Origin: an uncultured Candidatus Saccharibacteria bacterium
Lineage (GTDB): Bacteria; Patescibacteriota; Minisyncoccia; Phycocordibacterales; 2-02-FULL-43-11
NCBI GenBank assembly: GCA_964348785.1
Contig: CAYGDO010000003.1
Location: forward strand, 57,631-121,630
DNA: 64,000 nucleotides
Direction of reading: 5' to 3'
Shown here: positions 28,871 to 47,783 of the stretch, piece after piece
Layout: each line of letters opens with the position of its first letter
How positions within the stretch are numbered: position 1 is the stretch's first letter
The notes under the pieces: generated by a model
Databases searched by the model: none
What the model saw: only the letters and a program-made list of their open reading frames with translations
What the model was told of the DNA's origin: nothing
Position numbers and translations under genes: made by a program

Positions 28871-28960
28871 CTGCGAATTAGTTCGTTACTTTAATATAAA
28901 AAATAGATTTTGTCAAATAAAAATACTCAATAAAAAATCCCCAGCCGAAACCGAGGAAAT

Positions 28961-29359: not shown

Positions 29360-29446
29360 GGTGATTATTTCCTGACCAACTTATACCACTAAAATTAATA
29401 AACTGTCAATATCGAAAAACCAGCCTAAATAAGCGATATTAAGCAA

Positions 29447-30709: not shown

Positions 30710-30762
30710 ATATCAAAAATGTCTTTATCTTCTATTTTTAATATTTAATTTTTGATTTAATT

Positions 30763-31671: not shown

Positions 31672-31707
31672 ACTGGATTAGAAAAAATTAAGATATATAA
31701 TTGTCTT

Positions 31708-32763
31708 ATGTCAGAAGGTGGCGGAGTTTCATCAGCAGTTAAAGAACTTATACTCATAATACTTATATTTCTAGGTATTGGTTTTTTGTGGATGGCAACC
31801 GGCGGAATAAAACTGTCTCAAAATAACAACGAGCCAGTAAAAGAAAACGCTCAAACAGCAACAACCACCAAAACCGGTGGGGGTTTTTGGAATTTTTTTA
31901 AACCGTTTGACTTTGATTCTGGGACTTCAACTTTTGATTCAGATTACGGCATAGACTCTTGGTACGATGACAGTGGCAACACCACCGAACCCAATACCCC
32001 TCCCAAAAAACCTGATGATGTGACTTACAATTCTTACCAAAGAGACATAATCTACTATGGTTCTGAGCAAGTGAAAAATCCAGTAATTGAGGAACCAGAC
32101 AAAATTTTTATTGATGGCGTAAGCGGAAGTTATTATTCATCAGACGAAGAAACCAGCGAGTATATATCCATATCTGCTCCAGAAACAAATAAAAAGAAAT
32201 TCTTAATAACCGGTCTAACATTAAAAAGTAGAATGTCCGGGAGCCAAATACAAATCGGAGAAGGTGTAACAACTTATTATTCAAATTCTATAAATGCCAA
32301 AACCGCCGTCTTTTTAGCGCCCGGTGAAAAAGCTTTAGTCATAACCAGAAAGTCCCCTCTGGGTTATTCTTTCAAAACAAACAAATGTATGGGTTATTTA
32401 ACCCAATATCAAGATTTCTATCCAGGAATTTACTCGCAGTGCCCCCTAGTTAGCGACTACCCTTACCCAGAGAGACCTAACGCTTTCACTGATCAATGTT
32501 TAGACTTTTTAGACGGCATTGGATCCTGCCAATCAGTTTCTTTGGACTATGTGCCAGAAGGACTTCCTCAAAATTGTTTGAATTTTGCAACCGAAAGAGC
32601 AAATTACAATCGTTGCGTAGCCGATTTTTCCAACGATAAAGATTTCCTAAGTAATGAATGGAGAATTTATCTTGGAAGAACACAGAGTATTTGGAAAGAC
32701 AGGCGAGAAATAATTGATGTAATCGACGCCAAAGGAAATATTATCCAAACTTATACCTATTAA
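31708..32763 (+). CDS. Membrane-anchored extracellular Cys-containing protein (hypothetical)
   Basis: N-terminal TM helix. The C-terminal domain has 8 Cys (…QCPLV…QCLDFLDGIGSCQSV…NCLNF…NRCVADF). Confidence 0.4.
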   Translation: MSEGGGVSSAVKELILIILIFLGIGFLWMATGGIKLSQNNNEPVKENAQTATTTKTGGGFWNFFKPFDFDSGTSTFDSDYGIDSWYDDSGNTTEPNTPPKKPDDVTYNSYQRDIIYYGSEQVKNPVIEEPDKIFIDGVSGSYYSSDEETSEYISISAPETNKKKFLITGLTLKSRMSGSQIQIGEGVTTYYSNSINAKTAVFLAPGEKALVITRKSPLGYSFKTNKCMGYLTQYQDFYPGIYSQCPLVSDYPYPERPNAFTDQCLDFLDGIGSCQSVSLDYVPEGLPQNCLNFATERANYNRCVADFSNDKDFLSNEWRIYLGRTQSIWKDRREIIDVIDAKGNIIQTYTY

Positions 32764-32764
32764 G

Positions 32765-33250
32765 TTAAAACGAGGAAAAAAGAAAGACCGCAAGAGCAAT
32801 ATTTACATTTAAGGACTCCTTGTTGCCCCTCATTGGAATCTCTACTATTTCATCACACACATCCAAATCTTCCTTAGAAAAACCCTCTCGTTCCCTACCC
32901 ACCACTACTGCCATCTTTGAAGTTGCCTTAAAATCTTTAAAATTTGTAGACCTCTTATCTTGTTCAAGAGCTACAATTTTAATATTCTGTTTCTTTAAAT
33001 TTTCAACCGCATCAACAAAACTTTTAAAATATTCGTAAGAAACTGTTTTTTCAGCACCTAAGGAAACTTTAGAAAAATCTTTCCTTGTTCTTCCAAACCT
33101 GTCTATTGGCTCTGGTGTAACACCACACAAAATTATTTTCTTAACACCAACACAATCAGCAATACGAAAAATAGAAGCGGTGTTAAAGACACTTCTTATG
33201 TTGTTCAAAACCACAATAGGCTCAAGATTTTTATTAACGCCATCTTTCAT
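32765..33250 (-). CDS. SpoU/TrmH-family RNA 2'-O-methyltransferase
   Basis: VVLNNIRSVFNTASIFRIADCVGV…EIPMRGNKESLNVNIALAVFLF, SPOUT motifs I-III. Confidence 0.75.
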   Translation of the reverse strand: MKDGVNKNLEPIVVLNNIRSVFNTASIFRIADCVGVKKIILCGVTPEPIDRFGRTRKDFSKVSLGAEKTVSYEYFKSFVDAVENLKKQNIKIVALEQDKRSTNFKDFKATSKMAVVVGREREGFSKEDLDVCDEIVEIPMRGNKESLNVNIALAVFLFSSF

Positions 33251-33269
33251 AAAACAACTTTATAAGCGA

Positions 33270-33305
33270 CGTAGAGCGAGGGAAATGAAAACTGTTTGAA
33301 GTTTT
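33270..33305. promoter_or_regulatory. Perfect 12-bp palindrome GGAAATGAAAAC-n8-GTTTTCATTTCC in the divergent promoter region, plus a second inverted repeat TATATAGTCC…GGACTATATA at 33330-33420
   Basis: Seen in sequence. It lies between the divergent SpoU-family and doxX genes. Confidence 0.35.
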
Positions 33306-33449
33306 CATTTCCGAGCCGAGGAGTTTATATAGTCCCTCTAAAAATGCACGTTTCTGCCACGCAAGCAGAACGAATCTTTGAGTTCCAATTACCTCAAGGT
33401 TTGCCCCGATGGACTATATAATTAAACATTATTCTGTTAAAATTGCCAC

Positions 33450-33854
33450 ATGTTAAATACATTTCCAACATTGTTAGCTTTTGGCTTATTAGCCCCTTTT
33501 ATTCTTAGAATTTGTATTGGTTTAATAATGCTTGATTTTGGTTATTCAAAAATATCCAAATTGAAGTCCGATAAAACAGTGATGTTTGAATCACTGGGCA
33601 TGAAACCGGGTATCTATTACGTTTATATTTTTGGATTAGTAGAAATAGTTGCAGGACTAGCATTAATCGCTGGATTCTTTACTCAGATTGCCAGTTTAAT
33701 AACATTTATAATTTGTCTTTTGGCCATACTCGTCAAAAGACGAAACTCTGAAAACGTTAAGAGTTCATACACGACCCTTATCCTATCCATGATGATAGCT
33801 CTATCATTAATATTCTCTGGTGCAGGTTTCTTGGCTTTTGATTTACCGTTGTAA
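33450..33854 (+). CDS. DoxX-family membrane protein
   Basis: 134 aa with 4 TM helices and the DoxX-like N-terminus LLAFGLLAPFILRICIGLIMLDFGYSKI. Confidence 0.55.
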   Translation: MLNTFPTLLAFGLLAPFILRICIGLIMLDFGYSKISKLKSDKTVMFESLGMKPGIYYVYIFGLVEIVAGLALIAGFFTQIASLITFIICLLAILVKRRNSENVKSSYTTLILSMMIALSLIFSGAGFLAFDLPL

Positions 33855-33904
33855 AAATCACAAAGCTGTATTGCAAAACTTATATAAAACAAAGTTGTTT
33901 TCTG

Positions 33905-33977
33905 TCCGCCCGGGGGGAATCGAACCCTCGACCATCTCCTTAAAAGGGAGCTGCTCTACCAACTGAGCTACGGGCGG
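33905..33977 (-). tRNA. tRNA-Lys (TTT), unusual C1-G72 acceptor, CCA not encoded
   Basis: D-arm GCTCAGTTGGTAGAGC; anticodon loop CTTTTAA; T-arm GAGGG-TTCGATT-CCCCC; acceptor CCGCCCG/CGGGCGG. Confidence 0.7.
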
Positions 33978-34035
33978 AATAGAGAATAATTTAAGCTTTT
34001 ATTGACAAAAAGTAAAGCTGGTTTTTTAAGGATCG

Positions 34036-34737
34036 TTACACCCCCAACAAAAAAATCTCTAAAGCATTTTCCAAAGTATATTCCCCCCTATGACCTCTAT
34101 GATAAATTTCAACTAATTTTGAAAGCCACTTTTGTATCTCCCCTTCTTTGAAATTTTTTAAAAAACCTTTTGCCTTAGAGAAAACAAAAGGTTTCATTTT
34201 TGCCTCAACGGCATCCTTTGAAACCTCAGCAATCGCCAAAGATTTAATTTGCCAAAAAATCGTACCGTGAATTTCTTCTGGCTGGAATCCTTCTTCTATA
34301 AGTTTTCTATAGATAAGCCATGAGTGTTTCTTATCTCTCCTTCCAATCGAATCTGCCAAAGCAAAGATATTGGTAGGCTCTTTTTTGAAATTTTTTGATT
34401 TAATATCATGTAAAATAATATTTTTTCTTTTAACTTCTTCTTTCCAAACTCCAACGCTTAAAGAAACCACAAAAGTATTTTGAGAATTTTCAAACTTATC
34501 TAAATTTTCCAAAAAATTACTAACTGTCGCTTTATCAGCTCCCGTAATATCAAACAAAATTAAAGTGCCTCCGCCAAAAAGGCTTTTAGACAAAACCAGC
34601 TCATCCCAATTCAAAGGCAAACTAGAATCCAATTCATTGAAAAAATAATCCCGATTGGTAGCCAAAAAATCTTTAGCAAATTTTTTTGCCTCAATTCGGA
34701 CATCACTCTCATTTTCTCCAATAAAAACGTGCAACAC
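34036..34737 (-). CDS. holA: DNA polymerase III delta subunit-like (HolA)
   Basis: N-terminal MLHVFIGEN…, with an AAA+-lid-like alpha/beta region then a helical one. Immediately downstream of polA, a short CPR-style version. Confidence 0.45.
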   Translation of the reverse strand: MLHVFIGENESDVRIEAKKFAKDFLATNRDYFFNELDSSLPLNWDELVLSKSLFGGGTLILFDITGADKATVSNFLENLDKFENSQNTFVVSLSVGVWKEEVKRKNIILHDIKSKNFKKEPTNIFALADSIGRRDKKHSWLIYRKLIEEGFQPEEIHGTIFWQIKSLAIAEVSKDAVEAKMKPFVFSKAKGFLKNFKEGEIQKWLSKLVEIYHRGHRGEYTLENALEIFLLGV

Positions 34738-34747
34738 TTTTTTATTT

Positions 34748-37153
34748 TTAATATTTAATTTTCTCTAATTCAGCCCAATTTTTGCCAGCTGAAGCATCAA
34801 CGACAATCGAAACCCCTTCGCTTTTTTCTGCTGGTAAACAAGTCTCCATAATATTTTTTATTTCCTTCGAAACAGAATCGACTAGAGAATTCTCCACCTC
34901 ATAAACCAATTCGTCGTGAACTTGAAGCAATAAATTTACCTTCCCTGTTAAACCTTTTTTAATCAAAAAATCATCAGTCCGGACCATTGCTAACTTTATA
35001 ATGTCAGCCTCAGTGCCTTGAATCGGCGCATTGATAGCCATTCTTTCAGCCCCAGCTCTTACAAAAGGCAACTTAGAATTTATACCCTCAAAATATCTGC
35101 GTCTTCCAAAGAGTGTTTCAGTAAAACCTTTTTCACCTGCACTCTTTTTCGTATCCTCTAAATATTTTGCCAAACCCGAAAATTTCTCAAAATAATCATT
35201 ATAAAATTTCTGAGCGTCTTCTCTCTTAAACTCTATGGGCATACCATTGCTATCAATCGCCAACTGAGCCCGTAAAGCATTTACCCCCATCCCATACATC
35301 ACTCCAAAATTTATAGCTTTAGCTCTTCTTCTCATTTCTTTATCAATCTTATCTATCGGCACCCCAAAAACGGATGAAGCTACTGCCGAATGAATATCTT
35401 TGCCTTGCTTGAAAATTTCTATAAGATTTTCATCTTTAGAAATAATCGCCGCTATACGAAGTTCTATTTGAGAATAATCCAAAGACAACAAACTAAAACC
35501 ATCTTTGGCCGTAAAAGCCTTTCTAATCTCCTTACCCATTTCTGTATGATTTGGAATATTTTGCAAATTAGGATTTTCTGAGGACATTCTTCCTGTCGTC
35601 GTGCCCGCCTGAATAAAGCGCGCATATAATCTGCCATCAATACCAATAACTGGTATCAAATTTTCTATATAAGTCGAAAGGACTTTCGCCAGCTCTCTAT
35701 ATTTTACGATATAAGGGATAACTTCATGTTCTTCGTACAACTTTAAAAGTTCCGATTCTTTTGTGGACAATGCTCCTCCCGGGGTTTTCTTTTGTCCTTT
35801 TGCTTTTAATCCCAATTTAACAAAAAGTACTTCGCCAAGTTGTTTTGGTGAAGCAATATTAAATTCTGTACCAGTCATTTTCCAAATTTTCTTTTCAATT
35901 TGAGCAAGTTCTAAAGAGTATTTTTTTCTTAATTGTTTCAAATGTCCTATATCAACAGAAACTCCCGCCCTGTTCATCTTTTCAACTACGGGTAAAAGTG
36001 GTTTTTCTATTTCCTGAAACACTTCAGTCAAATTCATTTCTTTTATTTTCTTCTCCAAGAAAACCTTGGCATCTTTTAGAGAATTGGTATTGGAAAAATT
36101 TAAGACATCTTCAATTGAAGGGTCCGTAACAGACGAATTTACAAGCCACAACATCAATTTTATTTCTTCTTTTTCTTTTTCAGTTAAAACATCCTCTACT
36201 TTTTCAACATTCTCCTTTTTCAAATCACCCTTAATTCCTTTAATCTCCCTCAATCTTTCAGACATAGTTCTAAATTCAAATTTGGAAAAAATAGTTTGGG
36301 CTTGTTCCAAATCTAATTCATCAATCCATTTTTTCTCTGGCAATTTAAAATTAATAGGTGCATCAACCCTAATAGAAGCCAAGATTTTACTAAACTCAGC
36401 TTCTTCCTTGCCCGCTTTCAACAACTCTATGATTCTTGGTTTAAAACCCAAATCTAAAAACCTTTTTTCATCTTTCTGTAATGCCTTATAAATATTTTCA
36501 ACAGAACCAAAATTGGTAATTAAAGAGGTAGCAGTCTTTTCGCCAATACCTTTTATACCAATAATATTGTCCGACTGATCACCGGACAATCCTTTGTAAT
36601 CTGGAATAAGTTTTGGTGAAAATCCAAAACGTTTAAATACCGCGTCTTCGTTATATAAAATTGTATCGTTGATACCTTTTTTGAGAGTATAAACTAAAAC
36701 CTTATCGTCACTGACCAATTGCAAAGTATCCATATCGCCAGAGGCAATAACGATTTGCAAATCATGGTTATCTTTTGTTTTATCAACTATTGTTCCTAGA
36801 ATATCGTCAGCTTCAAAACCTTCTTTATCATAAATTGGAATTGAGAATGCCTTTAAAACATCTCTCGAACTTTGAAGTTGAGATACGAGTTCATCATCAG
36901 CTTTTTTTCTGCCAGCTTTATATTCTTTATAAACCTCATGACGGTGCGTTGGTTTTGGTAAATCATAAGCTGCAATAATATAATCGGGCTTTAAATCTTT
37001 AGCTATTTTAATCACCATTGAACACAAACCGTACAAAGCGCCCGTGGGCTCCCCTTTAGATGACGCAAACTGAGGTAGAGCGTGATAAGCCCGATGAATT
37101 ATGGCGTGAGCATCAAGCAAAACTATTTTTTTTCTATTTGAGTTTTCCTTCAC
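34748..37153 (-). CDS. polA: DNA polymerase I (5'-3' exonuclease plus polymerase domains)
   Basis: N-terminal 5'-nuclease (…LLDAHAIIHRAYHAL…) and C-terminal polymerase motifs A (DYSQIELR), B (RRRAKAINFGVMYG) and C (VHDELV). Confidence 0.9.
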   Translation of the reverse strand: MKENSNRKKIVLLDAHAIIHRAYHALPQFASSKGEPTGALYGLCSMVIKIAKDLKPDYIIAAYDLPKPTHRHEVYKEYKAGRKKADDELVSQLQSSRDVLKAFSIPIYDKEGFEADDILGTIVDKTKDNHDLQIVIASGDMDTLQLVSDDKVLVYTLKKGINDTILYNEDAVFKRFGFSPKLIPDYKGLSGDQSDNIIGIKGIGEKTATSLITNFGSVENIYKALQKDEKRFLDLGFKPRIIELLKAGKEEAEFSKILASIRVDAPINFKLPEKKWIDELDLEQAQTIFSKFEFRTMSERLREIKGIKGDLKKENVEKVEDVLTEKEKEEIKLMLWLVNSSVTDPSIEDVLNFSNTNSLKDAKVFLEKKIKEMNLTEVFQEIEKPLLPVVEKMNRAGVSVDIGHLKQLRKKYSLELAQIEKKIWKMTGTEFNIASPKQLGEVLFVKLGLKAKGQKKTPGGALSTKESELLKLYEEHEVIPYIVKYRELAKVLSTYIENLIPVIGIDGRLYARFIQAGTTTGRMSSENPNLQNIPNHTEMGKEIRKAFTAKDGFSLLSLDYSQIELRIAAIISKDENLIEIFKQGKDIHSAVASSVFGVPIDKIDKEMRRRAKAINFGVMYGMGVNALRAQLAIDSNGMPIEFKREDAQKFYNDYFEKFSGLAKYLEDTKKSAGEKGFTETLFGRRRYFEGINSKLPFVRAGAERMAINAPIQGTEADIIKLAMVRTDDFLIKKGLTGKVNLLLQVHDELVYEVENSLVDSVSKEIKNIMETCLPAEKSEGVSIVVDASAGKNWAELEKIKY

Positions 37154-37203
37154 AACTTAATTCTACATTAAAGCAAGTAAAAGAAAATTGACTGAACCTA
37201 AAT

Positions 37204-37638
37204 TTAAAATGTTAATTTTCTTGTAGTTTCGTCTATAAATTCAAAATTTATTTTGTAAGCATTATTTGGAATAGACTCCTTCACTATTTCTGGCCATTCC
37301 ACAAAAATTAAATTGTCGCTGTCCTTGAGTAATTCCGCAAACCCCAGAACCCCTAATTCTGAACTGTTATTTAAACGATAAACATCCATATGAATTAAGT
37401 TTTTAAACTTAAATCTTAAATCTTTAATTTTAAATCTTTTTTGAATGACAAAAGTGGGACTGGTGATATCTTCTTGTATGCCGAGTGTGCTCGCTACGCA
37501 TTTAACAAACGCTGTTTTGCCAGAACCAAGTTCACCAAACAAAACCACAACTGTGGCATTGTCCCCTTTTTCAATCTTGGATAAAAAATCAGAAGCCAAC
37601 TTTTGCGTATCTTCTAAACTTTTACTTAAAAATTCCAT
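37204..37638 (-). CDS. tsaE: tRNA threonylcarbamoyladenosine biosynthesis ATPase TsaE
   Basis: VVLFGELGSGKTAFVKCV and SPTFVI motifs. Confidence 0.75.
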   Translation of the reverse strand: MEFLSKSLEDTQKLASDFLSKIEKGDNATVVVLFGELGSGKTAFVKCVASTLGIQEDITSPTFVIQKRFKIKDLRFKFKNLIHMDVYRLNNSSELGVLGFAELLKDSDNLIFVEWPEIVKESIPNNAYKINFEFIDETTRKLTF

Positions 37639-37680
37639 ATCCGCATTTTATATTAAAAGAGAGTCGTTAGACAAATCAAT

Positions 37681-37692
37681 CCCGTTAGAAGC
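37681..37692 (+). repeat. Dispersed motif copy CCCGTTAGAAGC, with a degenerate copy GTCGTTAGACAA 15 nt upstream
   Basis: Seen in sequence. Confidence 0.5.
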
Positions 37693-37787
37693 CACGGACA
37701 CTGACTCTGGATTAAAAAACATTGTTAAAAAATAATTAAAATCTAAAAATATAGGGACGTAGATAATCTGTCCGTGTCCTGCTTTTA

Positions 37788-37828
37788 ACGGGATAAAAAA
37801 AGCCCCCCGCGATGCAAGCATCGCGAGG
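37788..37828 (-). terminator. Rho-independent terminator of the Gly/Tyr-rich protein gene
   Basis: CGCGATGC-ttg-CATCGCG followed by GGGGC and a T7 run on the minus strand. Confidence 0.55.
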
Positions 37829-37848
37829 GATTGAAATTCGCTTGGCGA

Positions 37849-38823
37849 CTAATGTCGCCTTCCTCCTCCACTTGGAGTGGACCCAGAGGACACCTGTCCT
37901 CCGTGATTCAAACCAGAAGAAACACTTCCCCCGATCGTCGCGCCACCACCCCAGGAGTAGGTGTTTTCACGGGTATACCCGACGTTGCTCGGATAAACGT
38001 TGAGGATGGCACCGCCACCCACGGAAAACCCTGAGGACGAGTACGACTGACTGCCATACCCGAAACCAGACCCTCTATGGCTGGACCGAGATTGTCCGCC
38101 ATAAACACCGCCCCCGGAATAGGCCTGACCTCCATAGGTCTGCCCGCCGTAAACACCACCACCAGAGTAAGCCTGACCTCCGTACACTCCGCCAGAGTAG
38201 GCTTGTCCACCATAAGTTCCTCCGGAGAAGGCCTGCCCTCCATAGGTACCGCCCGAAAAGACTTGGCCTCCGTAGGACTGGTAGCTTCCGTAGCCACCAT
38301 CACAGCAGGGTTGTGGATCACAACATTGCTGGACCACAACCACCTGCGGAGGTGGAGATGGGTCGGCGAGGTGACGAACAGCGCGGTAAGACTTTTGCCC
38401 TGTGGCATAATCCACCACTTCCGTAATGTAATTCGTCCCAATCACTTCATCCCGCGAGTTACGGACAAGCACCACTCGGTGCGTTTCCACTCGCGAGTCC
38501 CGATAATGAGGCGATCGAGGATCGGTCGGAAGAATTTCCTCATCCGGGACACCAACACCGCTGGCAAAAAGACCTTCCGCCATCCCCTCCTTACTAACTG
38601 GAATCATTCCCGTGGAAGTGGACACCTCATTAGTAGTTACAGAGGGAGAATTGGTTTCGACCATGATGACCACATTGGTCACGATCACGGTCACCGTATT
38701 GGTTACGACTGGAGGAGGGACCGACATTTCCACCTTCGCGACGACACCTGTCGTCCACAGCGTGGCCGGCATCGAGGAGACAGCGAAACCGAAAACCGAC
38801 AACAAAACGATTAGAGTTTTCAT
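37849..38823 (-). CDS. Secreted Gly/Tyr/Gln-rich low-complexity repeat protein with a Cys cluster (QQCCDPQPCCDGG), encoded in high-GC island 2
   Basis: Signal peptide MKTLIVLLSVFGFAVSS, then ~9 tandem YGGQ(A/V)(Y/F)SGG(T/V) repeats. GC is roughly 58%. The frame is supported by the in-frame signal peptide and by the repeat periodicity. Confidence 0.5.
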   Translation of the reverse strand: MKTLIVLLSVFGFAVSSMPATLWTTGVVAKVEMSVPPPVVTNTVTVIVTNVVIMVETNSPSVTTNEVSTSTGMIPVSKEGMAEGLFASGVGVPDEEILPTDPRSPHYRDSRVETHRVVLVRNSRDEVIGTNYITEVVDYATGQKSYRAVRHLADPSPPPQVVVVQQCCDPQPCCDGGYGSYQSYGGQVFSGGTYGGQAFSGGTYGGQAYSGGVYGGQAYSGGGVYGGQTYGGQAYSGGGVYGGQSRSSHRGSGFGYGSQSYSSSGFSVGGGAILNVYPSNVGYTRENTYSWGGGATIGGSVSSGLNHGGQVSSGSTPSGGGRRH

Positions 38824-38941
38824 TGAGTAGATGGGTTGAATTGTTTGAGAACAGCTACATTTAATTATATCATAAAAATAGATAAAGTCAAACAAGATAA
38901 ACGCCCTTTTTACAAAGCCAGATAAAGGTTAAAATAGTCCC

Positions 38942-40615
38942 ATGGTAACTTTTGATGAAGACAAATCGCGTTTAAAAATAGCTGAAATAAAGGAACAAGA
39001 AGAGGAAGGACTGCTCCGAGAAATGGCTGATAATTTAGGTTTGCCATTTACTACAGTTTTATCAAACGCCATAGAAATTGATGCCTTAAATTTTGTAAAA
39101 GAAGAAGAAGCCAGAAAAATCCAATGTATCCCCTTCAAACTAGATGGCAAGGTAATATCAATCGCAGCAAGATGGCCAGAAAATGAAGAATTTTTGAAAA
39201 TTGTAGAACGCATAAAAGCTATGGGCTACAGTGTTGAAATTAGCGTGACGTCAGAAAAAATTCTAGAACGTGCATTTGAAGCATACAAAAATCTGTCTTT
39301 GAGTATAGCCTCAAAAGCTGGAACAGTTGATATAACAGCAGAAGCTCTAAATGAATACGTAACAAAAGTAACTTCGGTTGCTGACATACAAAAAATCCTA
39401 GCTGAAAATAAAGAAAAAAAGTTTATAAACACTTCTCATACTTTAGAAATAATCTTAGCTGGTGCAATTTCCACCAAAGCTTCTGACATACATTTAGAAG
39501 CAGGAGAACAAGATGCGAGACTAAGATATAGATTGGACGGTATGCTCTATGACATTTTTTCTTTTGACCATAAAACATTCCATTCCATCTTGTCTCGTAT
39601 TAAATTGCTTTCCGGTCTGAAACTCAACATAAAAAGCGAGGCTCAAGACGGACGTTTTGCGATAGCAATCGGCGATGGAGCAATTGAAATCAGAACCTCT
39701 ATTGTGCCTGGCGGTTTTGGAGAATCTTCCGTTCTAAGAATATTGAATCCAAAATCAATATCCGTTCCTCTTGAAGATTTAGGTTTTAACAAAAAACTTC
39801 TTGGGATTATTTCTGACTTAATTTCACGCCCACAAGGTATGATTTTAACGACCGGTCCAACAGGAAGCGGAAAAACAACAACACTTTATGCTTGTCTAAA
39901 AAAAGTTTACGAACCATCACTTAAAATTTTAACTATTGAAGATCCTATAGAATACCGTTTGGGAGGTATCGTCCAAACGCAAGTTGATGAGAAAAAAGGT
40001 TACGGTTTTATGCTTGGTTTACGCTCAGCTCTTAGACAAGACCCAGACATAATAATGGTCGGAGAAATAAGAGATGAAGAAACTGCACGAACAGCAATTG
40101 ATGCCGCCTTAACCGGCCACTTAGTCTTTTCCACTCTTCATACAAATAACGCCGCTGGTGCCTTCACTCGTCTTATTGATTTAAAAGTAAATCCAAAAGT
40201 CATAACCTCTGCCCTATCAGCATCTCTGGCCCAAAGACTTATAAGAAAACTTTGTCCAAACTGTAGAAAAGAAGTCACGTTAGAAGGTAAAGATAAAGAG
40301 TCTATAGAAAAAATTGTTGCAGGAATGCCATACAAAGATGAAATCACAAATACTACTAAAATGTGGGTGCCTGCTGGTTGCGAAAAATGTTCTGGCATTG
40401 GTTACAAAGGCAGAATCGGAGTTTATGAAGCAATTCTTTCAAGCGGTGAAATTGAAAAAGTGGTTGAAGCCAATCCAAGTGAAAGAGAAATCCAAAAAGT
40501 GGCCCGCGCGCAAGGCATATACAACATGGCAGAAGATGGGGTAGCAAAAGTCTTACAAGGAATTACATCTTTAGACGAACTAAAACGCGTTGTCGATATT
40601 GAAAACACAAATTAA
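38942..40615 (+). CDS. pilB: Type IV pilus/type II secretion assembly ATPase (PilB/GspE family)
   Basis: N-terminal GSPII_E_N-like domain; Walker A GPTGSGKTTTLYA; Asp box; Walker B IMVGEIRD; His box; a C-terminal tetracysteine. Confidence 0.85.
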   Translation: MVTFDEDKSRLKIAEIKEQEEEGLLREMADNLGLPFTTVLSNAIEIDALNFVKEEEARKIQCIPFKLDGKVISIAARWPENEEFLKIVERIKAMGYSVEISVTSEKILERAFEAYKNLSLSIASKAGTVDITAEALNEYVTKVTSVADIQKILAENKEKKFINTSHTLEIILAGAISTKASDIHLEAGEQDARLRYRLDGMLYDIFSFDHKTFHSILSRIKLLSGLKLNIKSEAQDGRFAIAIGDGAIEIRTSIVPGGFGESSVLRILNPKSISVPLEDLGFNKKLLGIISDLISRPQGMILTTGPTGSGKTTTLYACLKKVYEPSLKILTIEDPIEYRLGGIVQTQVDEKKGYGFMLGLRSALRQDPDIIMVGEIRDEETARTAIDAALTGHLVFSTLHTNNAAGAFTRLIDLKVNPKVITSALSASLAQRLIRKLCPNCRKEVTLEGKDKESIEKIVAGMPYKDEITNTTKMWVPAGCEKCSGIGYKGRIGVYEAILSSGEIEKVVEANPSEREIQKVARAQGIYNMAEDGVAKVLQGITSLDELKRVVDIENTN

Positions 40616-40906
40616 ACCTCGTTAGAAGCTAACAGAGCACAAAATATTAAAACAATCAGAACCATAGTGTGTTTATGGTATTGATTGACTAGCAAAATAC
40701 TAATTTTAGTTAAAAAATTCACTAAGTTTCCTCCAAACCACATCAAACATCAGATAAAACGCACACTCAATAATATGTTGCAACTTGCTTCTAACGGGGT
40801 AAAGCTGTTGTAGTTTATCTCTTTCTTTCCAAATCAAAAAAAGGGGCTTGTAAATATTGCCTCTTTCGTAAAAAAGTTAAAATGGTCATAGAGATCATAT
40901 AAATCA

Positions 40907-41066
40907 AAAGCACGAACCTCTAAGCAACACTTTTAATTATGGGAATCAAAAGTATGACTGCAACACTAAGGAGAAACTCAGCAGAGTCACGTAAAGTGCA
41001 AAACCAAGTTTTCCTCGCAGAAGCATCAATTGGCGTAAGCCTTCATTGCTTAGAGGTTCGTGCTTT
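40907..41066. mobile_element. MITE-like element: perfect 21-bp terminal inverted repeats AAAGCACGAACCTCTAAGCAA (40907-40927) and TTGCTTAGAGGTTCGTGCTTT (41046-41066) flanking a 118-bp core
   Basis: Seen in sequence. No transposase lies within it. Overlapping ORF 40946..41227 is probably spurious. Confidence 0.5.
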
Positions 41067-41258
41067 CGGATAAACCTACAAACACATAAAAATGTGAAGA
41101 TCGCTACATTAGGCAGGTATGATAACACCAAATGCCTTACAACAAGTAGCATATCACAAATCAATTGTAATGTCAATAAGACACCTTTAAACCCCTTGAT
41201 TTTGAAAGTGTATTTAAACTGCACCAAAAAAAATAATCTGTAGTGATATAATCTAAAT

Positions 41259-42284
41259 ATGTCGATAAAAAAAGAAAAAACTGAAGAGAAAAAACCTCAA
41301 GAAGAGACTTTTTTAGACCAAACCCTACGACCTTCAGAGTGGGACGAGTATATTGGTCAACAAAACATTAAAGAAAATCTAAAAATCTTGCTTCAAGCTG
41401 CCAAAGAAAGAAAACACCCTCCAGAACATATCCTTTTCTATGGCCCACCAGGCCTTGGCAAGACAACCTTGGCTCATTTAATAGCCAGAGAGACTGGTTC
41501 GCAAATGAAAATTACATCAGGGCCAGCAATTGAGAAAGTTGGAGACCTTGCTTCTATACTAACCAACCTTTCACCTGGAGATATTTTGTTTGTAGATGAA
41601 ATCCATCGACTAAATAAATCCGTTGAGGAAATTCTATACCCGGCCATGGAATCCGGGGTTCTTGATATCATTATTGGCAAAGGTCCGTCGGCCCGAACTA
41701 TTCAGCTTGATTTGCCTCCGTTTACACTTCTCGCCGCAACAACCAAAATTGCCATGCTCTCCTCCCCTCTTCGCTCAAGATTTTCCGGTGGAGTCTTCCG
41801 ACTAGAATTTTATAAAGAAGAAGAGATTGGAAAAATTATTGATCGATCATCAAAAATTCTTGGTGTAGAAATGAAAGCCGACGCTATAAAAGAAATTGCT
41901 AAAAGAAGTCGCTTTACGCCAAGAACTGCCAACTACCTACTAAAAAGATGTAGAGATTTTGTCCAAATTAAAAAAGAAAAAATGAGTAAAGAGATGGTAG
42001 AAAGTGCTTTATCATTACTTGGTATAGATGAAGAAGGACTAAACAGCGCAGACCGCAATCTTCTCGAAGTAATGATTGAAAAATTCGGCGGTGGACCTGT
42101 TGGTTTAAATACTCTTTCGGCGGCACTCTCCGAAGATCAATCCACAATTGAAGATGTTCATGAACCATATCTCTTGCAACTTGGTTTTATTGAAAGAACT
42201 CCTAAAGGAAGATCCGCCACCACAAAAGCGTACGAACACATTAAAGTGAAAGGAAAAAACAAAAACCAAGAAAAATTACTGTAA
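41259..42284 (+). CDS. ruvB: Holliday junction DNA helicase RuvB
   Basis: Walker A GPPGLGKTTLA, Walker B ILFVDEIHRL, sensor motifs and the RuvB C-terminal winged helix. Confidence 0.9.
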   Translation: MSIKKEKTEEKKPQEETFLDQTLRPSEWDEYIGQQNIKENLKILLQAAKERKHPPEHILFYGPPGLGKTTLAHLIARETGSQMKITSGPAIEKVGDLASILTNLSPGDILFVDEIHRLNKSVEEILYPAMESGVLDIIIGKGPSARTIQLDLPPFTLLAATTKIAMLSSPLRSRFSGGVFRLEFYKEEEIGKIIDRSSKILGVEMKADAIKEIAKRSRFTPRTANYLLKRCRDFVQIKKEKMSKEMVESALSLLGIDEEGLNSADRNLLEVMIEKFGGGPVGLNTLSAALSEDQSTIEDVHEPYLLQLGFIERTPKGRSATTKAYEHIKVKGKNKNQEKLL

Positions 42285-42367
42285 AATTTAATCTTTATTT
42301 TAGAGATAAAAAATTGCCTTTTTCATCCTTTCTCCTATACTAACAACTATTAACTAACAACTAATTT

Positions 42368-42898
42368 ATGTCAGGACATAATAAATGGAGTCAGATAAAA
42401 GAAAAAAAGGGCAAAACTGATGCCTATAAAAGTAAAATTTTTGGCAGGTTAGCGAGACTAATAACCGTTGAAACCAAAAAAGCGGCGGGCAACAAAGAAG
42501 CCCCAGGACTTAAATCGGCCGTTGAAAAAGCTCGTGCCGAAAATATGCCAAACGACAACATTGAAAGAGCTATTAAAAAAGCCAGCGATGCCTCAAGTTC
42601 AAGTTTAGAAAATATTACTTACGAAGCTTATGGTCCAGGTGGTGTAGCTATTATCATTGAGGCCCTTACTGACAATAAAAACAAAGCTGTCCAAGAAATT
42701 AAAACTGTTCTGGCTAAAAATGGCACATCTCTCTCTTCCCCAGGAAGTGCTATGTGGGCTTTCAAAAAAACTGGAAATGTTTTTGAACCAGTAACAACCA
42801 CTAAAGTTGAAGAAAATGATGCACCAGCTTTAGAAAAATTAATTGATGAGCTTGATAACTGCGATGAGGTGCAAGAGGTGTTCACAAATGCGGAATAA
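42368..42898 (+). CDS. yebC: YebC/PmpR-family transcriptional regulator (short form)
   Basis: MSGHNKWSQIKEKKGKTDAYKSKIFGRLAR…, the YebC N-terminus, and a C-terminal …CDEVQEVFTN. Confidence 0.7.
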   Translation: MSGHNKWSQIKEKKGKTDAYKSKIFGRLARLITVETKKAAGNKEAPGLKSAVEKARAENMPNDNIERAIKKASDASSSSLENITYEAYGPGGVAIIIEALTDNKNKAVQEIKTVLAKNGTSLSSPGSAMWAFKKTGNVFEPVTTTKVEENDAPALEKLIDELDNCDEVQEVFTNAE

Positions 42899-43000
42899 AG
42901 TTCGTAAAAATCTTAATATCTAATTCCTAATTTCTAATAAAATTCCAAATGCTTGAATTTAGAAATTAAATATTAGAACTTAGAAATTACTTCCATTCAT

Positions 43001-43495
43001 ATGAAAATTCTCGGAATCGATCCTGGATATGAACGTGTGGGGCTCGCCATAGTTGAAAAAGGCCTTAAAAAAGACAAAGTGCTTTTTTCTATGTGTTTTA
43101 TTACCAAAAGAGAGGATGACCACGAAGTAAGGTTATTAAACATAAAAAAATGTGTCACAAAAGTAATTAAAAAATGGCAACCAGAAAAAATGGCCATAGA
43201 AAAATTATTTTTTAATGAAAATCAAAAAACGGCCCTAAAAGTGGCGGAAGCAAGAGGTGTCATTATCACAGAAGCTGCAGAAAACAACTTAGACGTTTTA
43301 GAAATTGGTCCATTAGAGGTAAAAATGGCCATTACTGGATATGGAAGAAGTGATAAAAGACAAATAAAGTTGATGTTGGACAAGATTGCTGATATAAGTA
43401 CTAAAATAAAATACGATGATGAATATGACGCCATAGGCATAGGGATAGCGGGACTCGCCATAGGAAATAATTTAAAAAAGTTATTCACAGCCTAG
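43001..43495 (+). CDS. ruvC: Crossover junction endodeoxyribonuclease RuvC
   Basis: MKILGIDPGYERVGLAIVE (catalytic Asp) and …YDAIGIGIAGL. Confidence 0.85.
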   Translation: MKILGIDPGYERVGLAIVEKGLKKDKVLFSMCFITKREDDHEVRLLNIKKCVTKVIKKWQPEKMAIEKLFFNENQKTALKVAEARGVIITEAAENNLDVLEIGPLEVKMAITGYGRSDKRQIKLMLDKIADISTKIKYDDEYDAIGIGIAGLAIGNNLKKLFTA

Positions 43496-43568
43496 GGTTA
43501 TTTTCAAAAAGTTTTTTATTTGGTAGAAATAGACTAGCCAAACGGCTCATTATAAATATATTTCAAAT

Positions 43569-43691
43569 ATGAACGTTTACGATGACGAAGAATTAGAAAA
43601 AAAAGAAGATGAAGCGGTAAACATAGAAGAAAGTGAGGAAGACGATGGAGAGATAGTGGAAGAAAGCTTTGACGATACGTACTCAATATAG
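43569..43691 (+). CDS. Small highly acidic protein (40 aa, hypothetical)
   Basis: MNVYDDEELEKKEDEAVNIEESEEDDGEIVEESFDDTYSI, followed by a strong terminator. Not in the ORF track because it is under 60 aa. Confidence 0.25.
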   Translation: MNVYDDEELEKKEDEAVNIEESEEDDGEIVEESFDDTYSI

Positions 43692-43692
43692 A

Positions 43693-43716
43693 AAAACCCC
43701 GCTATGCGGGGTTTTT
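43693..43716. terminator. Bidirectional terminator between the small acidic ORF and tyrS
   Basis: aaaaaCCCCGCtatGCGGGGttttt. Confidence 0.65.
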
Positions 43717-43718
43717 CT

Positions 43719-44906
43719 TTAAGAAACTTTTATATTCATAAACTTATGTTTACCTACCTTAACCACCAGGTTTTTTTCAATTTTAAAATGAAAATCTTCC
43801 ACTTTCTCCCCGTCCGGCAAAACACTTACAGCCCCTTCATCAATCAATCTTTTAAACTCAGCTTTTGAAGATAAAATCTTATTATTTAAAACCAACTCCA
43901 TAAGTTCCTCGCCTTTCTTTACAAACACCTCAGGTAAATCTTCAGGTATTTCTTTCTTGGAAAAAGTGTTTTCAAAATTTTCTAAAGCTTTCTTAGCGAG
44001 CTCTTCTCCGTGATAAAGAGAAACAATATTTTTAGCAAGTTCTAGTTTTAAATTTTTTGGGTTTGCACCATTATCCATTTCTTTTTTTATTGATTCTATA
44101 TACCCAACCGTAGCATCAGTACACAAAAGAAAATATTTTGCTATGAGCTCATCTTTAATAGACATAATCTTTCCGAACATATCGTTTGGTTCATCAGTAA
44201 TATTCACCACATTCCCCCAACTTGTACTCATCTTTCTGCCGTCTGTCCCTTCAAGCATTGAACAAGTAAGGACATCTTGCACTTCCATACCATAATATTT
44301 CTGAATAACCCTACCTGCCTTCACATTAAAAAGCTGATCGAATCCTCCAATTTCAACATCAGCTTTAATGGCCACAGAATCGTAACCTTGCATAATTGGA
44401 TATAAAAACTCCCTAATAGAAATGTCCTGACCTTTTTCATATCTTTCTGAAAAATTCCTACGAGCCAACATTTGCTGAACAGAAAAAGATTCCGCAAGTT
44501 TTCCTATTTCCTTAAAATTTAGCTTGGAAAGCCAAGAGCTGTTAAATACCACCTCAGCTTTTTCCGTATCTATAATTTTTCCTATAATTTTTATATAATT
44601 TTTAAGATTTTTCTCAACAGTGCTCTCATCAAGCATTGGTCGTTTTTCTGACTTATCAGATGAGTCACCAATTAAAGCAGTAAAATCCCCTACCACGAGC
44701 ACAATTTGATGTCCTAATTCCTGAAATCTTTTTAATTTTCTTAGCACGCTCGCTCTACCAAGGTGAATAGTGTCCCCGGTTGGATCAATGCCCAATTTTA
44801 TCCTCAATGTTTTTTCTGACTTCAATTTTGTCTCCAGATTTTCTTTAACAAAAACATCCTCCACCCCCCTGGTGAGAACATCATAAATTAATTCTTTTTT
44901 TTCCAT
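43719..44906 (-). CDS. tyrS: Tyrosine--tRNA ligase
   Basis: Class I HIGH region (GIDPTGDTIHLGRAS), a KMSTS-like KMSTSWG, and a C-terminal S4-like domain. Confidence 0.85.
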   Translation of the reverse strand: MEKKELIYDVLTRGVEDVFVKENLETKLKSEKTLRIKLGIDPTGDTIHLGRASVLRKLKRFQELGHQIVLVVGDFTALIGDSSDKSEKRPMLDESTVEKNLKNYIKIIGKIIDTEKAEVVFNSSWLSKLNFKEIGKLAESFSVQQMLARRNFSERYEKGQDISIREFLYPIMQGYDSVAIKADVEIGGFDQLFNVKAGRVIQKYYGMEVQDVLTCSMLEGTDGRKMSTSWGNVVNITDEPNDMFGKIMSIKDELIAKYFLLCTDATVGYIESIKKEMDNGANPKNLKLELAKNIVSLYHGEELAKKALENFENTFSKKEIPEDLPEVFVKKGEELMELVLNNKILSSKAEFKRLIDEGAVSVLPDGEKVEDFHFKIEKNLVVKVGKHKFMNIKVS

Positions 44907-44973
44907 TAATAAAATTTAACACAACCTCTCCATTTTGTCCCTAAACATTTAGGTTTTGTGATAATATTTCATA

Positions 44974-47514: not shown

Positions 47515-47519
47515 CCAAT

Positions 47520-47780
47520 CTATCTTATATCTTTTATCTTCTCTTTCTCTGGTAATGTTTCATTAACACAAGAAATGAACTCGTTTTTCCTGACAAAAAT
47601 TTCTGTTTTATACAAACCCCCTACCTTTAAAACCACCTTATCTCCCGAAAAAGAAATGTCTTTATCGTCTAATTTTAGAGAAAAAATTTTATCTAAACAA
47701 ACTTTTACTAATTGTTTTTTTTGTTTACGATTATTATCTAAAAAAGTGAACTTGGATAATAAATCAGAAATATTATTCAT
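47520..47780 (-). CDS. DUF721/DciA-like small protein downstream of dnaN
   Basis: 86 aa, basic. Positional equivalent of DciA/DUF721 in the dnaA-dnaN-(recF/dciA) neighbourhood. Confidence 0.35.
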   Translation of the reverse strand: MNNISDLLSKFTFLDNNRKQKKQLVKVCLDKIFSLKLDDKDISFSGDKVVLKVGGLYKTEIFVRKNEFISCVNETLPEKEKIKDIR

Positions 47781-47783
47781 ATT

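Follow-up and report, generated by a model that had tools for sequence, protein, structure and literature searches.

The 64-kb window analysed here (64,000 nucleotides, numbered from its first letter) carries one strongly GC-rich gene among AT-rich neighbours. If every compositional outlier were a horizontal transfer, as the rule has it, this gene would be read as foreign. The question is whether that reading holds for this locus, and, if not, what keeps the gene GC-rich.

The GC-rich gene and its base composition

The minus-strand ORF at positions 37849–38823, stop codon included, encodes a secreted Gly/Tyr/Ser/Val-rich protein of 324 residues. The GC content is 55.6%, with GC1, GC2 and GC3 of 0.585, 0.542 and 0.542. 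Sixty other ORFs of the window show a mean GC of 34.4% (SD 2.5) and a mean GC3 of 0.279 (SD 0.031), and the CDS lies about 8 SD above this background in both values. According to the sliding-window analysis (100-nt windows), GC rises from 0.29 to 0.50–0.61 exactly from the terminator to the start codon, and it is 0.27 in the promoter region. With these sharp boundaries, the GC-rich island described in the original prediction is real. The prediction had left the strand unstated; it is the minus strand. An antisense ORF of 245 residues also lies within the GC-rich DNA of the gene.

When the same protein is recoded with the codon usage of the genome, a GC content of 46.5% and a GC3 of 0.30 are expected, against the observed GC3 of 0.54. 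Amino-acid composition accounts for only about half of the GC excess, and synonymous codon choice is the other half. A3 is 0.15 in this gene and 0.38 in the background genes, because A-ending codons are avoided. The sharp boundaries, and a Gly content of 18% of the residues, would suit a chimeric assembly, which the original prediction had raised, or a GC excess caused by Gly/Pro/Ala-rich composition alone. However, the GC3 value contradicts composition alone, and across both junctions, over 5,086 bp, 100% identity is shown by the independent Logan assembly of run ERR3094302. The same gene arrangement is found in four other metagenomes. We regard both explanations as practically negligible.

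The island is a genuine gene encoding a secreted Gly/Tyr/Ser/Gln-rich repeat protein with a Cys motif. In the conserved blocks, pN is 0.25–0.33 and pS is 0.65–0.81 for the window gene against its orthologues. The ENA, NCBI and Logan assemblies, which may sample one population, all give the identical protein.

Promoter, terminator and intergenic DNA

A promoter consisting of TTGACT, a spacer of 16 nt and a TG-extended TATAAT is located at 38864–38891 on the minus strand. It matches the consensus at 11 of 12 positions in addition to the TG, is the best match within window positions 29000–48900, and is kept at all five orthologous loci. The leader of about 35–45 nt has no Shine-Dalgarno sequence, an element found in just 7 of 52 genes and therefore rarely used in this genome. 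The divergent intergenic region (38824–38941), common to the gene and pilB, contains the promoter, the leader and a conserved block adjoining the pilB start. The alignment of this region from the five loci has a mean column identity of 76% with long invariant runs. A replication origin at this point of divergence was considered and rejected, as the cumulative GC skew is flat and not V-shaped.

At the other end, an intrinsic terminator with a 12-bp stem (8 G-C pairs) and a T-run is located at 37803–37830 on the minus strand. It is the strongest terminator match in 20 kb, in agreement with the strong terminator predicted originally; it is found at five of five loci, and the changes in its stem preserve pairing. 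A small hairpin, GGCGAC-AUUA-GUCGCC, was read from the sequence across the stop codon (37844–37859, minus strand), and a comparable block is present at four of the five loci. Within 20 kb, no promoter or terminator matches better than those of this gene, which may be highly expressed and have a long-lived mRNA.

Architecture of the protein

The N-terminus MKTLIVLLSVFGFAVSSMPA shows the n/h/c layout typical of a Sec signal peptide, with neither a lipobox nor a pilin motif; the signal region contains no Cys in any of the five family members. The signal peptide, called by eye and by conservation in five orthologues, is of the SPase I type and comprises about 17–21 residues (38764–38823, minus strand; cleavage site approximate), with MK, a hydrophobic core and a small-residue c-region. 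A type IV pilin or pseudopilin was rejected, since the signal is not of class III (G/FTLIE-type) and only the adjacency of pilB fits.

The remaining segments, all on the minus strand, are as follows. The Thr/Val/Ser/Pro-rich linker (38512–38763) cannot be aligned between orthologues and has an AF2 pLDDT below 50. The conserved core, residues 105–152 approximately (38368–38511), contains most of the invariant columns, with the consensus YRDSRxETHRVVLVxNSRxEVIGTNYITEVxDYxTGxxSYRxV. It is the only segment with a pLDDT near 70, and is predicted to form a three-stranded beta-meander (strands 111–121, 127–138 and 143–151). A Pro-rich Cys hinge follows, in which the motif CCDPQPCC, read from the sequence at 38302–38325, stands just after PPPQVVVVQQ. 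The orthologues have CPPAPC, CQPC or CCQPC at the hinge, and C168, P172 and C173 are conserved. Both the signal peptide and the Cys motif were thus correctly recognized in the original prediction. The low-complexity Gly/Tyr/Gln/Ser region (38092–38298), predicted to be disordered, is composed of about six [AV][FY]SGG[TV]YGGQ units. The C-terminal block NVYPxNVGYxxExxYSWGxGxxVGGxVSSGL, followed by a basic tail (GGRRH), is located at 37909–38001, and V276, Y277, P278, Y289, S290, G292, G294, G298, S303, G304 and L305 are invariant.

The AF2 model, built on an alignment of only five sequences, is of low confidence (mean pLDDT 37.6), and Foldseek with this model against the PDB gave nothing below E = 0.5. 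No match to the window protein was found in Pfam (E ≤ 1) or NCBIfam, nor in the PDB by sequence search below E = 0.78. A kinship with cuticle or keratin-associated proteins had been suggested; because of these negative results, the likeness is only compositional. A functional amyloid of the curli CsgA/FapC type was rejected on the same absence of Pfam and NCBIfam matches, on the unstructured repeat region in the AF2 model (low confidence, five sequences), and on the gene neighbourhood, the gene being monocistronic between pilB and tsaE with no adjoining secretion or nucleator genes.

The product may be described as a Sec-secreted protein of about 30 kDa, mostly disordered according to the model. 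The signal peptide would be followed by the Thr/Val-rich linker, the small beta domain, the Pro/Cys hinge, the Gly/Tyr/Gln/Ser tail and the C-terminal motif. The hinge would probably form inter-chain disulfides, and multimerisation may follow. An adhesive or matrix role, which the original prediction had offered as one option, would be the most plausible function.

The tandem repeats

Seven YGGQ and five [FY]SGG motifs give about six decapeptide units (30 nt each); tandem repeats are present as predicted, but not in the predicted number of about nine. In the gene, TRF detects a period of 30 with 2.4–2.5 copies and 73–74% matches, and the best BLAST match within the gene is 76.8% over 56 nt. 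Scrambled synonymous codons, which differ from unit to unit, bring the identity of the DNA repeat units down to only about 75%. The repeat region is about four units longer than in the orthologues, so the repeat number changes over evolutionary time, as a phase-variable contingency locus switched by slipped-strand changes in the 30-nt repeats would require. However, the low identity of the DNA units argues against slippage, a change by a 30-nt unit stays in frame and gives no on/off switching, and the independent assemblies, which may come from one population, have the same protein with the same repeat number. The contingency locus of the original prediction is very unlikely.

Orthologues and inheritance

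Searches of 5.8 and 1.84 billion proteins recovered four orthologues, which together with the window gene make a family of five. All five are in the arrangement pilB, gene, tsaE and polA, and the orthologues come from four other metagenomes. No homologue was found in the two protein sets outside this slot between pilB and tsaE, and the host origin that had been proposed loses its ground. A word-indexed search with the core alignment gave no candidates, and no relatives were detected when GTDB genomes and JGI metagenomes were scanned for the pattern of the family alignment. Two matches of an exhaustive profile search (P0006 and P0007) were repetitive junk and were rejected as homologues.

The orthologues have a GC of 0.52–0.56 and a GC3 of 0.49–0.55, against 0.30–0.36 for their flanks. 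The original prediction had raised horizontal acquisition as a possibility and had held that homologues of equal GC in related genomes would argue against a recent transfer; four AT-rich relatives have exactly such orthologues in the same slot. Its other suggestion, an unusual compositional constraint on the gene, is supported by the same orthologues. The high GC does not point to a foreign origin, because the related genomes keep the gene GC-rich too, and the gene is vertically inherited. With respect to the usual features of transferred islands, deviant composition is present and patchiness is absent (the gene is in the same slot at all four related loci recovered). Signatures of mobility were not found at the borders; the neighbours are pilB, tsaE, polA and ruvB, with the nearest tRNA at a distance of 3.9 kb. 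The sole mobility candidate is an inverted-repeat element of 115 nt, which lies downstream and outside the GC island.

The synonymous sites have been rewritten. The codons for identical amino acids differ at 58–67% among the orthologues, and more than one codon is used in 50 of the 56 columns with an invariant residue. An ancient acquisition from a very GC-rich donor, such as a host, with the GC excess as a decaying relic, would explain a strong compositional outlier with no family assignment. As 38–47% of the synonymous codons in the flanks differ, a rough decay calculation leaves GC3 near 0.5 from an ancestor of about 0.9, and the five orthologues alone would be compatible with such a slow amelioration. 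However, the billions of proteins searched hold no homologue outside the syntenic slot, and the gene has a promoter, leader, signal peptide and terminator of native type, all of them conserved. In addition, the unalignable linker still has a GC of 0.52–0.58 and a GC3 of 0.48–0.61 in all five orthologues. We consider this relic explanation improbable, and further evidence against it is given by the slot in other genomes and by the mRNA folding.

The slot between pilB and tsaE across the clade

The slot lies between the divergently transcribed pilB (type IV pilus ATPase, T2SSE family) and tsaE. At 24 further loci from more distant relatives (TsaE 40–55% identical), the slot contains non-homologous ORFs with a signal peptide or a lipobox; many of these positional analogues carry a lipobox and are lipoproteins. 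GC3 is above that of the adjacent tsaE in 23 of these 24 loci, which argues against a decaying relic. Over all loci, GC3 of the slot ORF exceeds that of tsaE in 28 of 29 (mean difference 0.21) with an ORF set picked partly by eye for signal peptides, and the slot-level comparison free of this bias shows a GC above that of the own locus in 25 of 27 occupied slots. A general GC-richness of secreted proteins was rejected, since no GC3 excess is found in ORFs with a signal peptide that lie outside the slot.

The alignment of the family with three positional analogues by hhalign was not significant (probability ≤ 7%), and thus a wider family cannot be claimed. Pfam gave no match for ten positional analogues. 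The slot holds fast-evolving signal-peptide or lipoprotein genes across the whole clade of small-celled groundwater-type bacteria, which is probably CPR/Patescibacteria.

Divergence of the coding body

The coding body is a divergence hotspot. In the comparison of two of the loci, L002 and L007, the gene shows dS 0.85 and dN 0.15 and the adjacent tsaE shows dS 0.10 and dN 0.014, and the DNA upstream of the gene is 96.5% identical. The CDS body diverges about 9-fold faster than the flanks, synonymous sites included. The protein identity between orthologues is star-like, 41–44% whatever the relatedness of the genomes, and the TsaE of locus L008 is anomalously divergent (56% vs 83%).

These features would agree with a recombination hotspot with GC-biased gene conversion, in which allele exchange raises GC and the mRNA structure is a by-product. 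However, GC returns to the background within tens of bases at both ends of the CDS, and GC3 does not rise in the adjacent pilB and tsaE. The structure of the mRNA also argues against this (see below), and we give gene conversion little credence. A target of a diversity-generating retroelement was rejected, as no template repeat is present in the 64-kb window and the divergence covers the whole CDS body instead of a C-terminal variable region. A sensitive blastn and tblastn search of the window detected no further copy of the gene, whole or in part, and no G4 motifs were found.

Folding of the mRNA

The native window mRNA has a predicted folding energy of -411.4 kcal/mol, against -377.5 ± 7.5 kcal/mol for 120 dinucleotide-preserving synonymous shuffles (z = -4.5). 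None of the 120 shuffles is as stable as the native mRNA, and 71% of the bases are paired in the fold predicted in silico. The five orthologue mRNAs show z values from -3.3 to -5.7. In the slot genes, z is negative in 29 of 29 with a mean of -3.6, whereas the tsaE controls have a mean of -0.15 (p = 6e-9), and the background genes of the window have a mean of 0.08 (SD 1.1). Plain codon shuffles agree with the dinucleotide-preserving shuffles. The excess is larger on the sense strand (mean z -4.19 vs -2.59, p = 1e-5), and the folding z is correlated with the GC3 excess (rho = -0.45, p = 0.014). An excess that survives the control for composition and dinucleotides, and that is larger on the sense strand, argues against structure as a by-product of gene conversion; ancient transfer predicts neither feature.

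The first 540 nt of the window gene reach only z = -2.3, and the ORF at 24772–25995 reaches -3.96 at equal length, so the window gene is not a unique structural outlier within the window. The ORFs of another GC-rich island in the window, island 1, are GC-rich without excess folding, and thus more than one cause may underlie the GC-richness in this genome.

No consensus RNA structure is shared among the slot genes (SCI 0.12–0.37), and a conserved RNA structure was rejected. The selected property would therefore have to be generic foldedness. Rfam at E ≤ 1 gave nothing relevant on either GC island. A structured non-coding RNA as the functional product, with the ORF as a by-product of high GC, would account for the strong sense-strand folding excess in every slot occupant, and GC-rich DNA yields long ORFs easily, the antisense ORF being an example. 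The lack of a consensus structure and of Rfam matches argues against it, as does the purifying selection in the conserved blocks (pN << pS). In addition, the frame and the signal peptide or lipobox are conserved at 29 loci, while the antisense ORF is not conserved in locus L001. Such an RNA is a highly improbable product of the locus.

Proposed explanation

We propose that the gene encodes a fast-evolving, probably abundant surface or adhesive protein, and that its GC-richness reflects selection for a structured, stable mRNA. We put the chance of this explanation at about even. The island is a single monocistronic gene, inherited vertically, in which GC3 is held at about 0.5 despite complete synonymous turnover, which would not be the signal of a decaying transfer. 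The cause of the GC excess would be selection for dense local pairing of bases within the sense transcript. Such pairing may protect the mRNA from nucleases and prolong its life, in support of strong expression of an envelope, adhesive or matrix protein, as in the case of E. coli lpp. The hotspot may arise by allele exchange or local hypermutation, as would be expected of an exposed surface protein.

A different role for the structure can be considered, in which the slot is a dedicated diversification cassette. Its strongly transcribed, GC-rich, hairpin-dense coding body would be flanked by conserved anchors, with the promoter and the signal-peptide region at one end and the terminator at the opposite end. 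The hairpins or R-loops of this body would set off localised hypermutation or templated mutation, or would steer allele replacement, and a surface protein facing the host or phages would be continually renewed in these ultra-small bacteria. GC-richness and RNA/DNA structure would then be part of the mechanism, beyond an adaptation for mRNA stability. We judge this cassette unlikely.

Comparison with known systems

For the proposed selection on mRNA stability, E. coli lpp is the closest model. Its mRNA was reportedly described as hairpin-rich by Nakamura and Inouye in 1980. Lpp ranks with the most abundant proteins of E. coli, and the half-life of lpp mRNA is about 10–11.5 min (PMC5924895, PMC10260701). 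The window gene resembles lpp, and likewise ompA, whose abundant envelope protein is also made from an unusually stable mRNA, in being short and monocistronic and in having a strong promoter and terminator for an exported envelope protein. The window mRNA is highly structured in silico, and many slot analogues are lipoproteins. Unlike Lpp, the window protein has an SPase I-type signal without a lipobox, is four times longer, largely disordered and hypervariable, and shows no sequence homology to it.

In Borrelia, the vlsE/vls surface-protein locus has a GC far above that of the AT-rich genome; this high GC is kept across species despite sequence divergence, and the coding body diversifies rapidly. 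The window gene resembles it as a GC-rich surface-protein gene in an AT-rich genome, with the GC kept despite divergence of a fast-diversifying body. However, no silent cassettes of the window gene were found in the 64-kb window, and the Vls proteins are folded lipoproteins, unlike the window protein.

Mussel and sandcastle-worm adhesives and the [G/S]Y[G/S]Q domains of the FUS type are Gly/Tyr-rich low-complexity proteins. The window protein shares with Gly/Tyr-rich adhesives the composition, short GY-containing repeats, predicted disorder and secretion. The resemblance is compositional only, as no family matches are found and common ancestry is unsupported; nothing in these proteins corresponds to the beta core, the Cys hinge or the C-terminal block. 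The glycine-rich proteins of tick cement (PMC2901319) provide a further Gly/Tyr-rich adhesive comparison. The source organism probably lives attached to a host cell.

Katz and Burge are said to have found in 2003 that native CDSs fold more stably than synonymous dinucleotide-controlled shuffles, a weak and genome-wide effect. The excess of the slot genes is of the same kind, but it is strong and locus-specific; it goes with a GC3 shift of about 0.2–0.25 and is tied to one syntenic slot clade-wide. Selection for mRNA secondary structure in coding regions has been reviewed (PMC3575835).

Implications

The gene is a clear counter-example to the rule stated at the outset. Its GC remains about 20 points higher than that of its genome although the synonymous sites have turned over completely, and methods for calling islands would therefore mislabel the gene. 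The GC-richness is linked to a measurable property, the excess folding of the sense-strand mRNA, and non-homologous genes that share one syntenic position show this signature throughout the clade. This suggests that sequence alone could mark out mRNAs of strong expression and long life in uncultivated bacteria. Existing metagenomic reads allow a direct examination of the 9-fold divergence hotspot, which is confined to the coding body. The slot adjoining the pilus ATPase gene is the home of a hypervariable secreted protein or lipoprotein, which is probably surface-exposed. Attachment and surface-coat proteins of such probable episymbionts are poorly understood, and the slot protein is a concrete candidate for one.

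GC content and origin of the target gene

The flagged interval contains a single long ORF on the minus strand, from 38823 to 37849, encoding 324 residues. The predicted jump in GC content is confirmed: the gene has 55.6% GC (GC1/2/3 = 0.585/0.542/0.542), against 34.4% (SD 2.5) and a GC3 of 0.279 (SD 0.031) for the 60 other ORFs of the window (mean GC 35.4%), and is located about 8 SD from this background in both GC and GC3. In the sliding profile of 100-nt windows, the GC content steps up and down at the terminator and the start codon, and the promoter region shows 27–29% GC. Recoding of the protein with the genome's own codon usage was computed to give only 46.5% GC and a GC3 of 0.30. Thus, about half of the GC excess comes from the amino-acid composition (Gly 18%, Val 13%, Ser 13%, Lys only 1.2%), and the other half from the choice among synonymous codons. 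Here, A-ending codons are mainly avoided (A3 of 0.15 versus 0.38); C3 and G3 are doubled, and GC3 is raised in all segments.

An assembly chimera was rejected, because the independent Logan assembly of the single run ERR3094302 is 100% identical to the window over 5,086 bp, from pilB through the target gene and tsaE into the beginning of polA. Only two relatives were found among 5.8 billion proteins, and two more came from 1.84 billion cluster representatives, searched exhaustively by HMMER with a profile of the conserved core. All four (L001, L002, L007 and L008) are from other metagenomes and show the identical arrangement, divergent pilB followed by the gene, tsaE and polA, with the promoter, leader and terminator conserved. 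In every case the orthologue is GC-rich (GC 0.52–0.56, GC3 0.49–0.55) between AT-rich flanks (0.30–0.36). As equal GC content in related loci was named in the original prediction as an argument against recent horizontal transfer, this origin is not supported. A contingency locus is also unlikely. The DNA repeat units have an identity of only 73–77%, owing to different synonymous codons from one unit to the next, and the protein is identical in independent assemblies. The window copy has about four more repeat units than the orthologues.

The pilB–tsaE slot

A metagenome scan with the TsaE alignment as the query gave 80 loci (TsaE 40–55% identical), none of which encodes a detectable homologue of the target family. 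Many are derived from the 0.1/0.2-um fractions of Hainich groundwater, a source that fits CPR-type organisms. Where a divergent pilB is present upstream, the slot between pilB and tsaE is either occupied (~460–1950 nt) or empty (5–179 nt; the eight loci L020, L023, L028, L047, L060, L074, L078 and L088). The empty slots indicate that the slot gene is dispensable or relocated in some lineages. Occupied slots are GC-richer than their own locus in 25 of 27 cases, AT-rich intergenic DNA included. The ORFs in occupied slots encode a signal peptide or lipobox and lie nearly always on the tsaE strand; Pfam domains were not found in the ten that were searched. Several are styled like the window protein, with Tyr/Gly/Pro-rich tails and a basic His/Arg C-terminus; the slot protein of L080 includes the stretch PIVVVQQPYGYGYPSGYGGGYGYGYP, reminiscent of this style.

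The GC3 of the slot ORF exceeds that of the adjacent tsaE in 28 of 29 loci (mean difference 0.21), and in 23 of 24 outside the target family; slot ORFs were chosen partly by signal peptides, a selection bias from which the slot-level comparison (25/27) is free. No excess of this kind is seen for signal-peptide ORFs located elsewhere in these loci or in the window. Therefore, secretion in general was rejected as the source, and the GC effect belongs to the slot. In L014, an extra secreted Gly/Tyr/Asp-rich ORF of ordinary GC (280–846; …AGGGYYYGQPYGDYYDYGYDYG…) adjoins the slot gene, and in L017 a second GC-rich lipoprotein (3163–3687, GC 0.58) does so. Thus, some lineages carry two such genes.

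The GC excess of the target is maintained and is not decaying. Codons for identical residues differ in 58–67% between orthologues, 50 of the 56 invariant-residue columns have more than one codon, and the GC3 at these columns is 0.48–0.62. The Thr/Val-rich linker, unalignable among the orthologues, still has a GC of 0.52–0.58 and a GC3 of 0.48–0.61 in all five. By a crude decay estimate, very slow amelioration could have brought a GC3 near 0.9 in the ancestor down to about 0.5 today, and the five orthologues alone are compatible with such a decay. However, it is unlikely because the GC3 excess recurs clade-wide in slot genes.

Structure of the mRNA

Each native CDS was tested against shuffles that encode the same protein with the codon counts of the gene unchanged; a stricter set also preserved all dinucleotide counts. 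The mRNA of the target has a fold of -411.4 kcal/mol, against -377.5 ± 7.5 for the dinucleotide-preserving shuffles (z = -4.5), and 0 of 120 shuffles were as stable as the native one; the plain codon shuffle gave z = -4.4. The z values of the other four orthologues range from -3.3 to -5.2. All 29 slot genes are negative (mean z -3.6; 23 below -2), whereas the adjacent tsaE genes, GC-rich ones included, have a mean z of -0.15 (Mann–Whitney p = 6e-9). The 56 background window genes have a mean z of 0.08 (SD 1.1). At equal length, only the ORF 24772–25995 is comparable among the window genes (z = -3.96), so the target is a strong but not unique outlier within this genome. The weight of the structure evidence lies in its recurrence in 29 loci. 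The product of the ORF 24772–25995 (plus strand) is membrane-anchored and contains three tandem repeats, each ~100 aa long and FN3-like by eye. The ORF has normal GC (0.38), and its true start is probably the internal MNKTTTITG....

The sense strand has a greater fold excess than its complement (mean z -4.19 versus -2.59, Wilcoxon p = 1.4e-5). This bias suggests G–U pairing, and thus an effect at the level of RNA instead of DNA. The predicted structure consists of many local hairpins (median pair span 20–33 nt, helices up to 8–13 bp, 66–71% of bases paired). As no consensus RNA structure was found among the orthologues (SCI only 0.37 and 0.12), the selected property looks like generic foldedness, not one specific shape. 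Among slot genes, a greater GC3 excess accompanies a greater structure excess (rho = -0.45, p = 0.014). We propose that selection for excess mRNA structure may have caused the GC-richness of the target; our confidence in such an mRNA-stability mechanism is moderate.

Divergence of the coding sequence

The target is protein-coding and fast-evolving; against the orthologues, its conserved blocks have a pN of 0.25–0.33 and a pS of 0.65–0.81 (saturated). The flanking proteins are 77–92% identical among the window, L001 and L008. Apart from the close pair L002/L007, all comparisons of the target protein give 41–44% identity, in a star-like pattern. In this pair, identity is 93–100% for the upstream DNA, the terminator, tsaE and roughly the first 70 nt of the CDS, and only 56–88% for the CDS body. 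The dS and dN are 0.85 and 0.15 for the target, and 0.10 and 0.014 for tsaE. Both rates are thus raised ~9–11-fold with similar dN/dS, which relaxed protein constraint alone does not account for. Either the alleles of the CDS body coalesce much further back (allele exchange), or the input of mutations is increased locally.

The TsaE of L008 (5194–5622) shares only 56% identity with its window and L001 counterparts, which share 83% with each other, whereas PilB, RuvB, YebC and PolA of L008 are 77–92% identical to theirs. The L008 locus is therefore mosaic, and a recombination or replacement breakpoint adjoins the slot.

The target protein and its likely function

The promoter (TTGACT, 16 nt, TG-TATAAT) and the strong terminator (12-bp stem, 8 G–C pairs), the latter expected from the original prediction, are the best consensus matches in the surrounding 20 kb. 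The Sec-type signal peptide and the Cys cluster (CCDPQPCC, 38302–38325) are likewise present. Gly/Tyr repeats also exist, as about six 10-aa units (7 YGGQ, 5 [FY]SGG) instead of the predicted nine or so. The order from the N-terminus is the signal peptide, a Thr/Val/Pro linker, a small beta domain, PPPxVVVV, the Pro-rich Cys motif, a Gly/Tyr/Gln/Ser low-complexity tail, the conserved NVYP...YSWG...VSSGL block and a basic end. The Cys motif, CPPAPC in L002, resembles an antibody hinge, and the protein is possibly disulfide-linked.

The AF2 model, built from five sequences only, has a mean pLDDT of 37.6; only residues ~105–152 are folded (three long antiparallel strands, pLDDT near 70), and the remainder is predicted to be disordered. 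Foldseek with this model gave no significant match. Protein searches did not provide a family assignment, with zero matches in Pfam, NCBIfam and PDB, and the gene belongs to no named family. A hairpin (GGCGAC-AUUA-GUCGCC, 37844–37859, minus strand) spans the stop codon shortly before the terminator, and a similar block is kept in four of the five orthologous loci. The conserved ...GRRH C-terminus may be partly due to RNA constraint.

In composition the protein parallels tick cement glycine-rich proteins and other Tyr/Gly adhesives, by analogy and not by homology. It may be a secreted or surface-retained, self-associating protein with a matrix, coat or glue role. The promoter region shared with divergent pilB, the hypervariability and the many lipoprotein positional analogues suggest a possible role at the cell surface, facing host or phage. 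Our confidence is high for the descriptive findings, and low for the specific function.

Other features of the window and related loci

Island 1 (28200–29300) consists of three GC-rich patches (0.49–0.60) with AT-rich gaps between them. The ORF 28961–29359 (minus strand) encodes a small membrane protein of 132 aa (MKRTLVVLSVLYFVFL..., GC3 0.59), which is 71% identical and also GC-rich in the sister metagenome locus L009, where a GGDEF-domain remnant comes next; the ORFs 28535–28870 and 28167–28409 are also GC-rich. An Rfam search of island 1 gave zero matches. Unlike the target, its ORFs show no mRNA structure excess (z = -0.4, -1.95 and -0.4), so the cause of their GC-richness may differ.

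Between the target terminator and tsaE, a ~115-nt element (37680–37795, minus strand) has terminal inverted repeats (ATCCCGTTAAAAGCAGGACACGGAC...GTCCGTGGCTTCTAACGGGAT) and an RNA fold of -34.8 kcal/mol (z = -3.4). It is near-identical in L002, partial in L008 and missing from L001 and L007, a distribution independent of relatedness; no further copy in the window and no Rfam match were found. It could be MITE-like or recurrently lost.

In the 25 nt upstream of the 52 ORF starts of the whole window, a Shine–Dalgarno-like motif is present for only seven genes. For many of the 52, a -10 box of the form TGnTAnAAT lies a few nucleotides ahead of the start codon, which suggests that mRNAs of this organism typically have a short leader or none. 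In L008, a patch of ~0.47–0.50 GC (8800–9400) lies downstream of a DNA polymerase III delta-like gene in a contig otherwise of 36% GC.

Comparison with known systems

The lpp mRNA of Escherichia coli is hairpin-rich. The lpp gene is small and monocistronic, encodes an envelope protein at a high level of expression, and has an mRNA of unusually long life (PMC5924895, PMC10260701). It is the closest functional parallel to the target, for which strong expression and mRNA longevity are predicted from the sequence. In evolutionary terms, the nearest parallel is a surface-antigen locus of the type of Borrelia vls, GC-rich within an AT-rich genome. The target differs from vls in that silent cassettes and G4 motifs were looked for with it in the 64-kb window and were not found. 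To our knowledge, no other system has been described in which a locus-specific decoupling of composition, a densely structured sense-strand mRNA and a divergence hotspot limited to the CDS body are combined in one clade-wide syntenic slot. We rate the target as a variation on two known kinds, structured stable mRNAs and hypervariable surface-protein loci.
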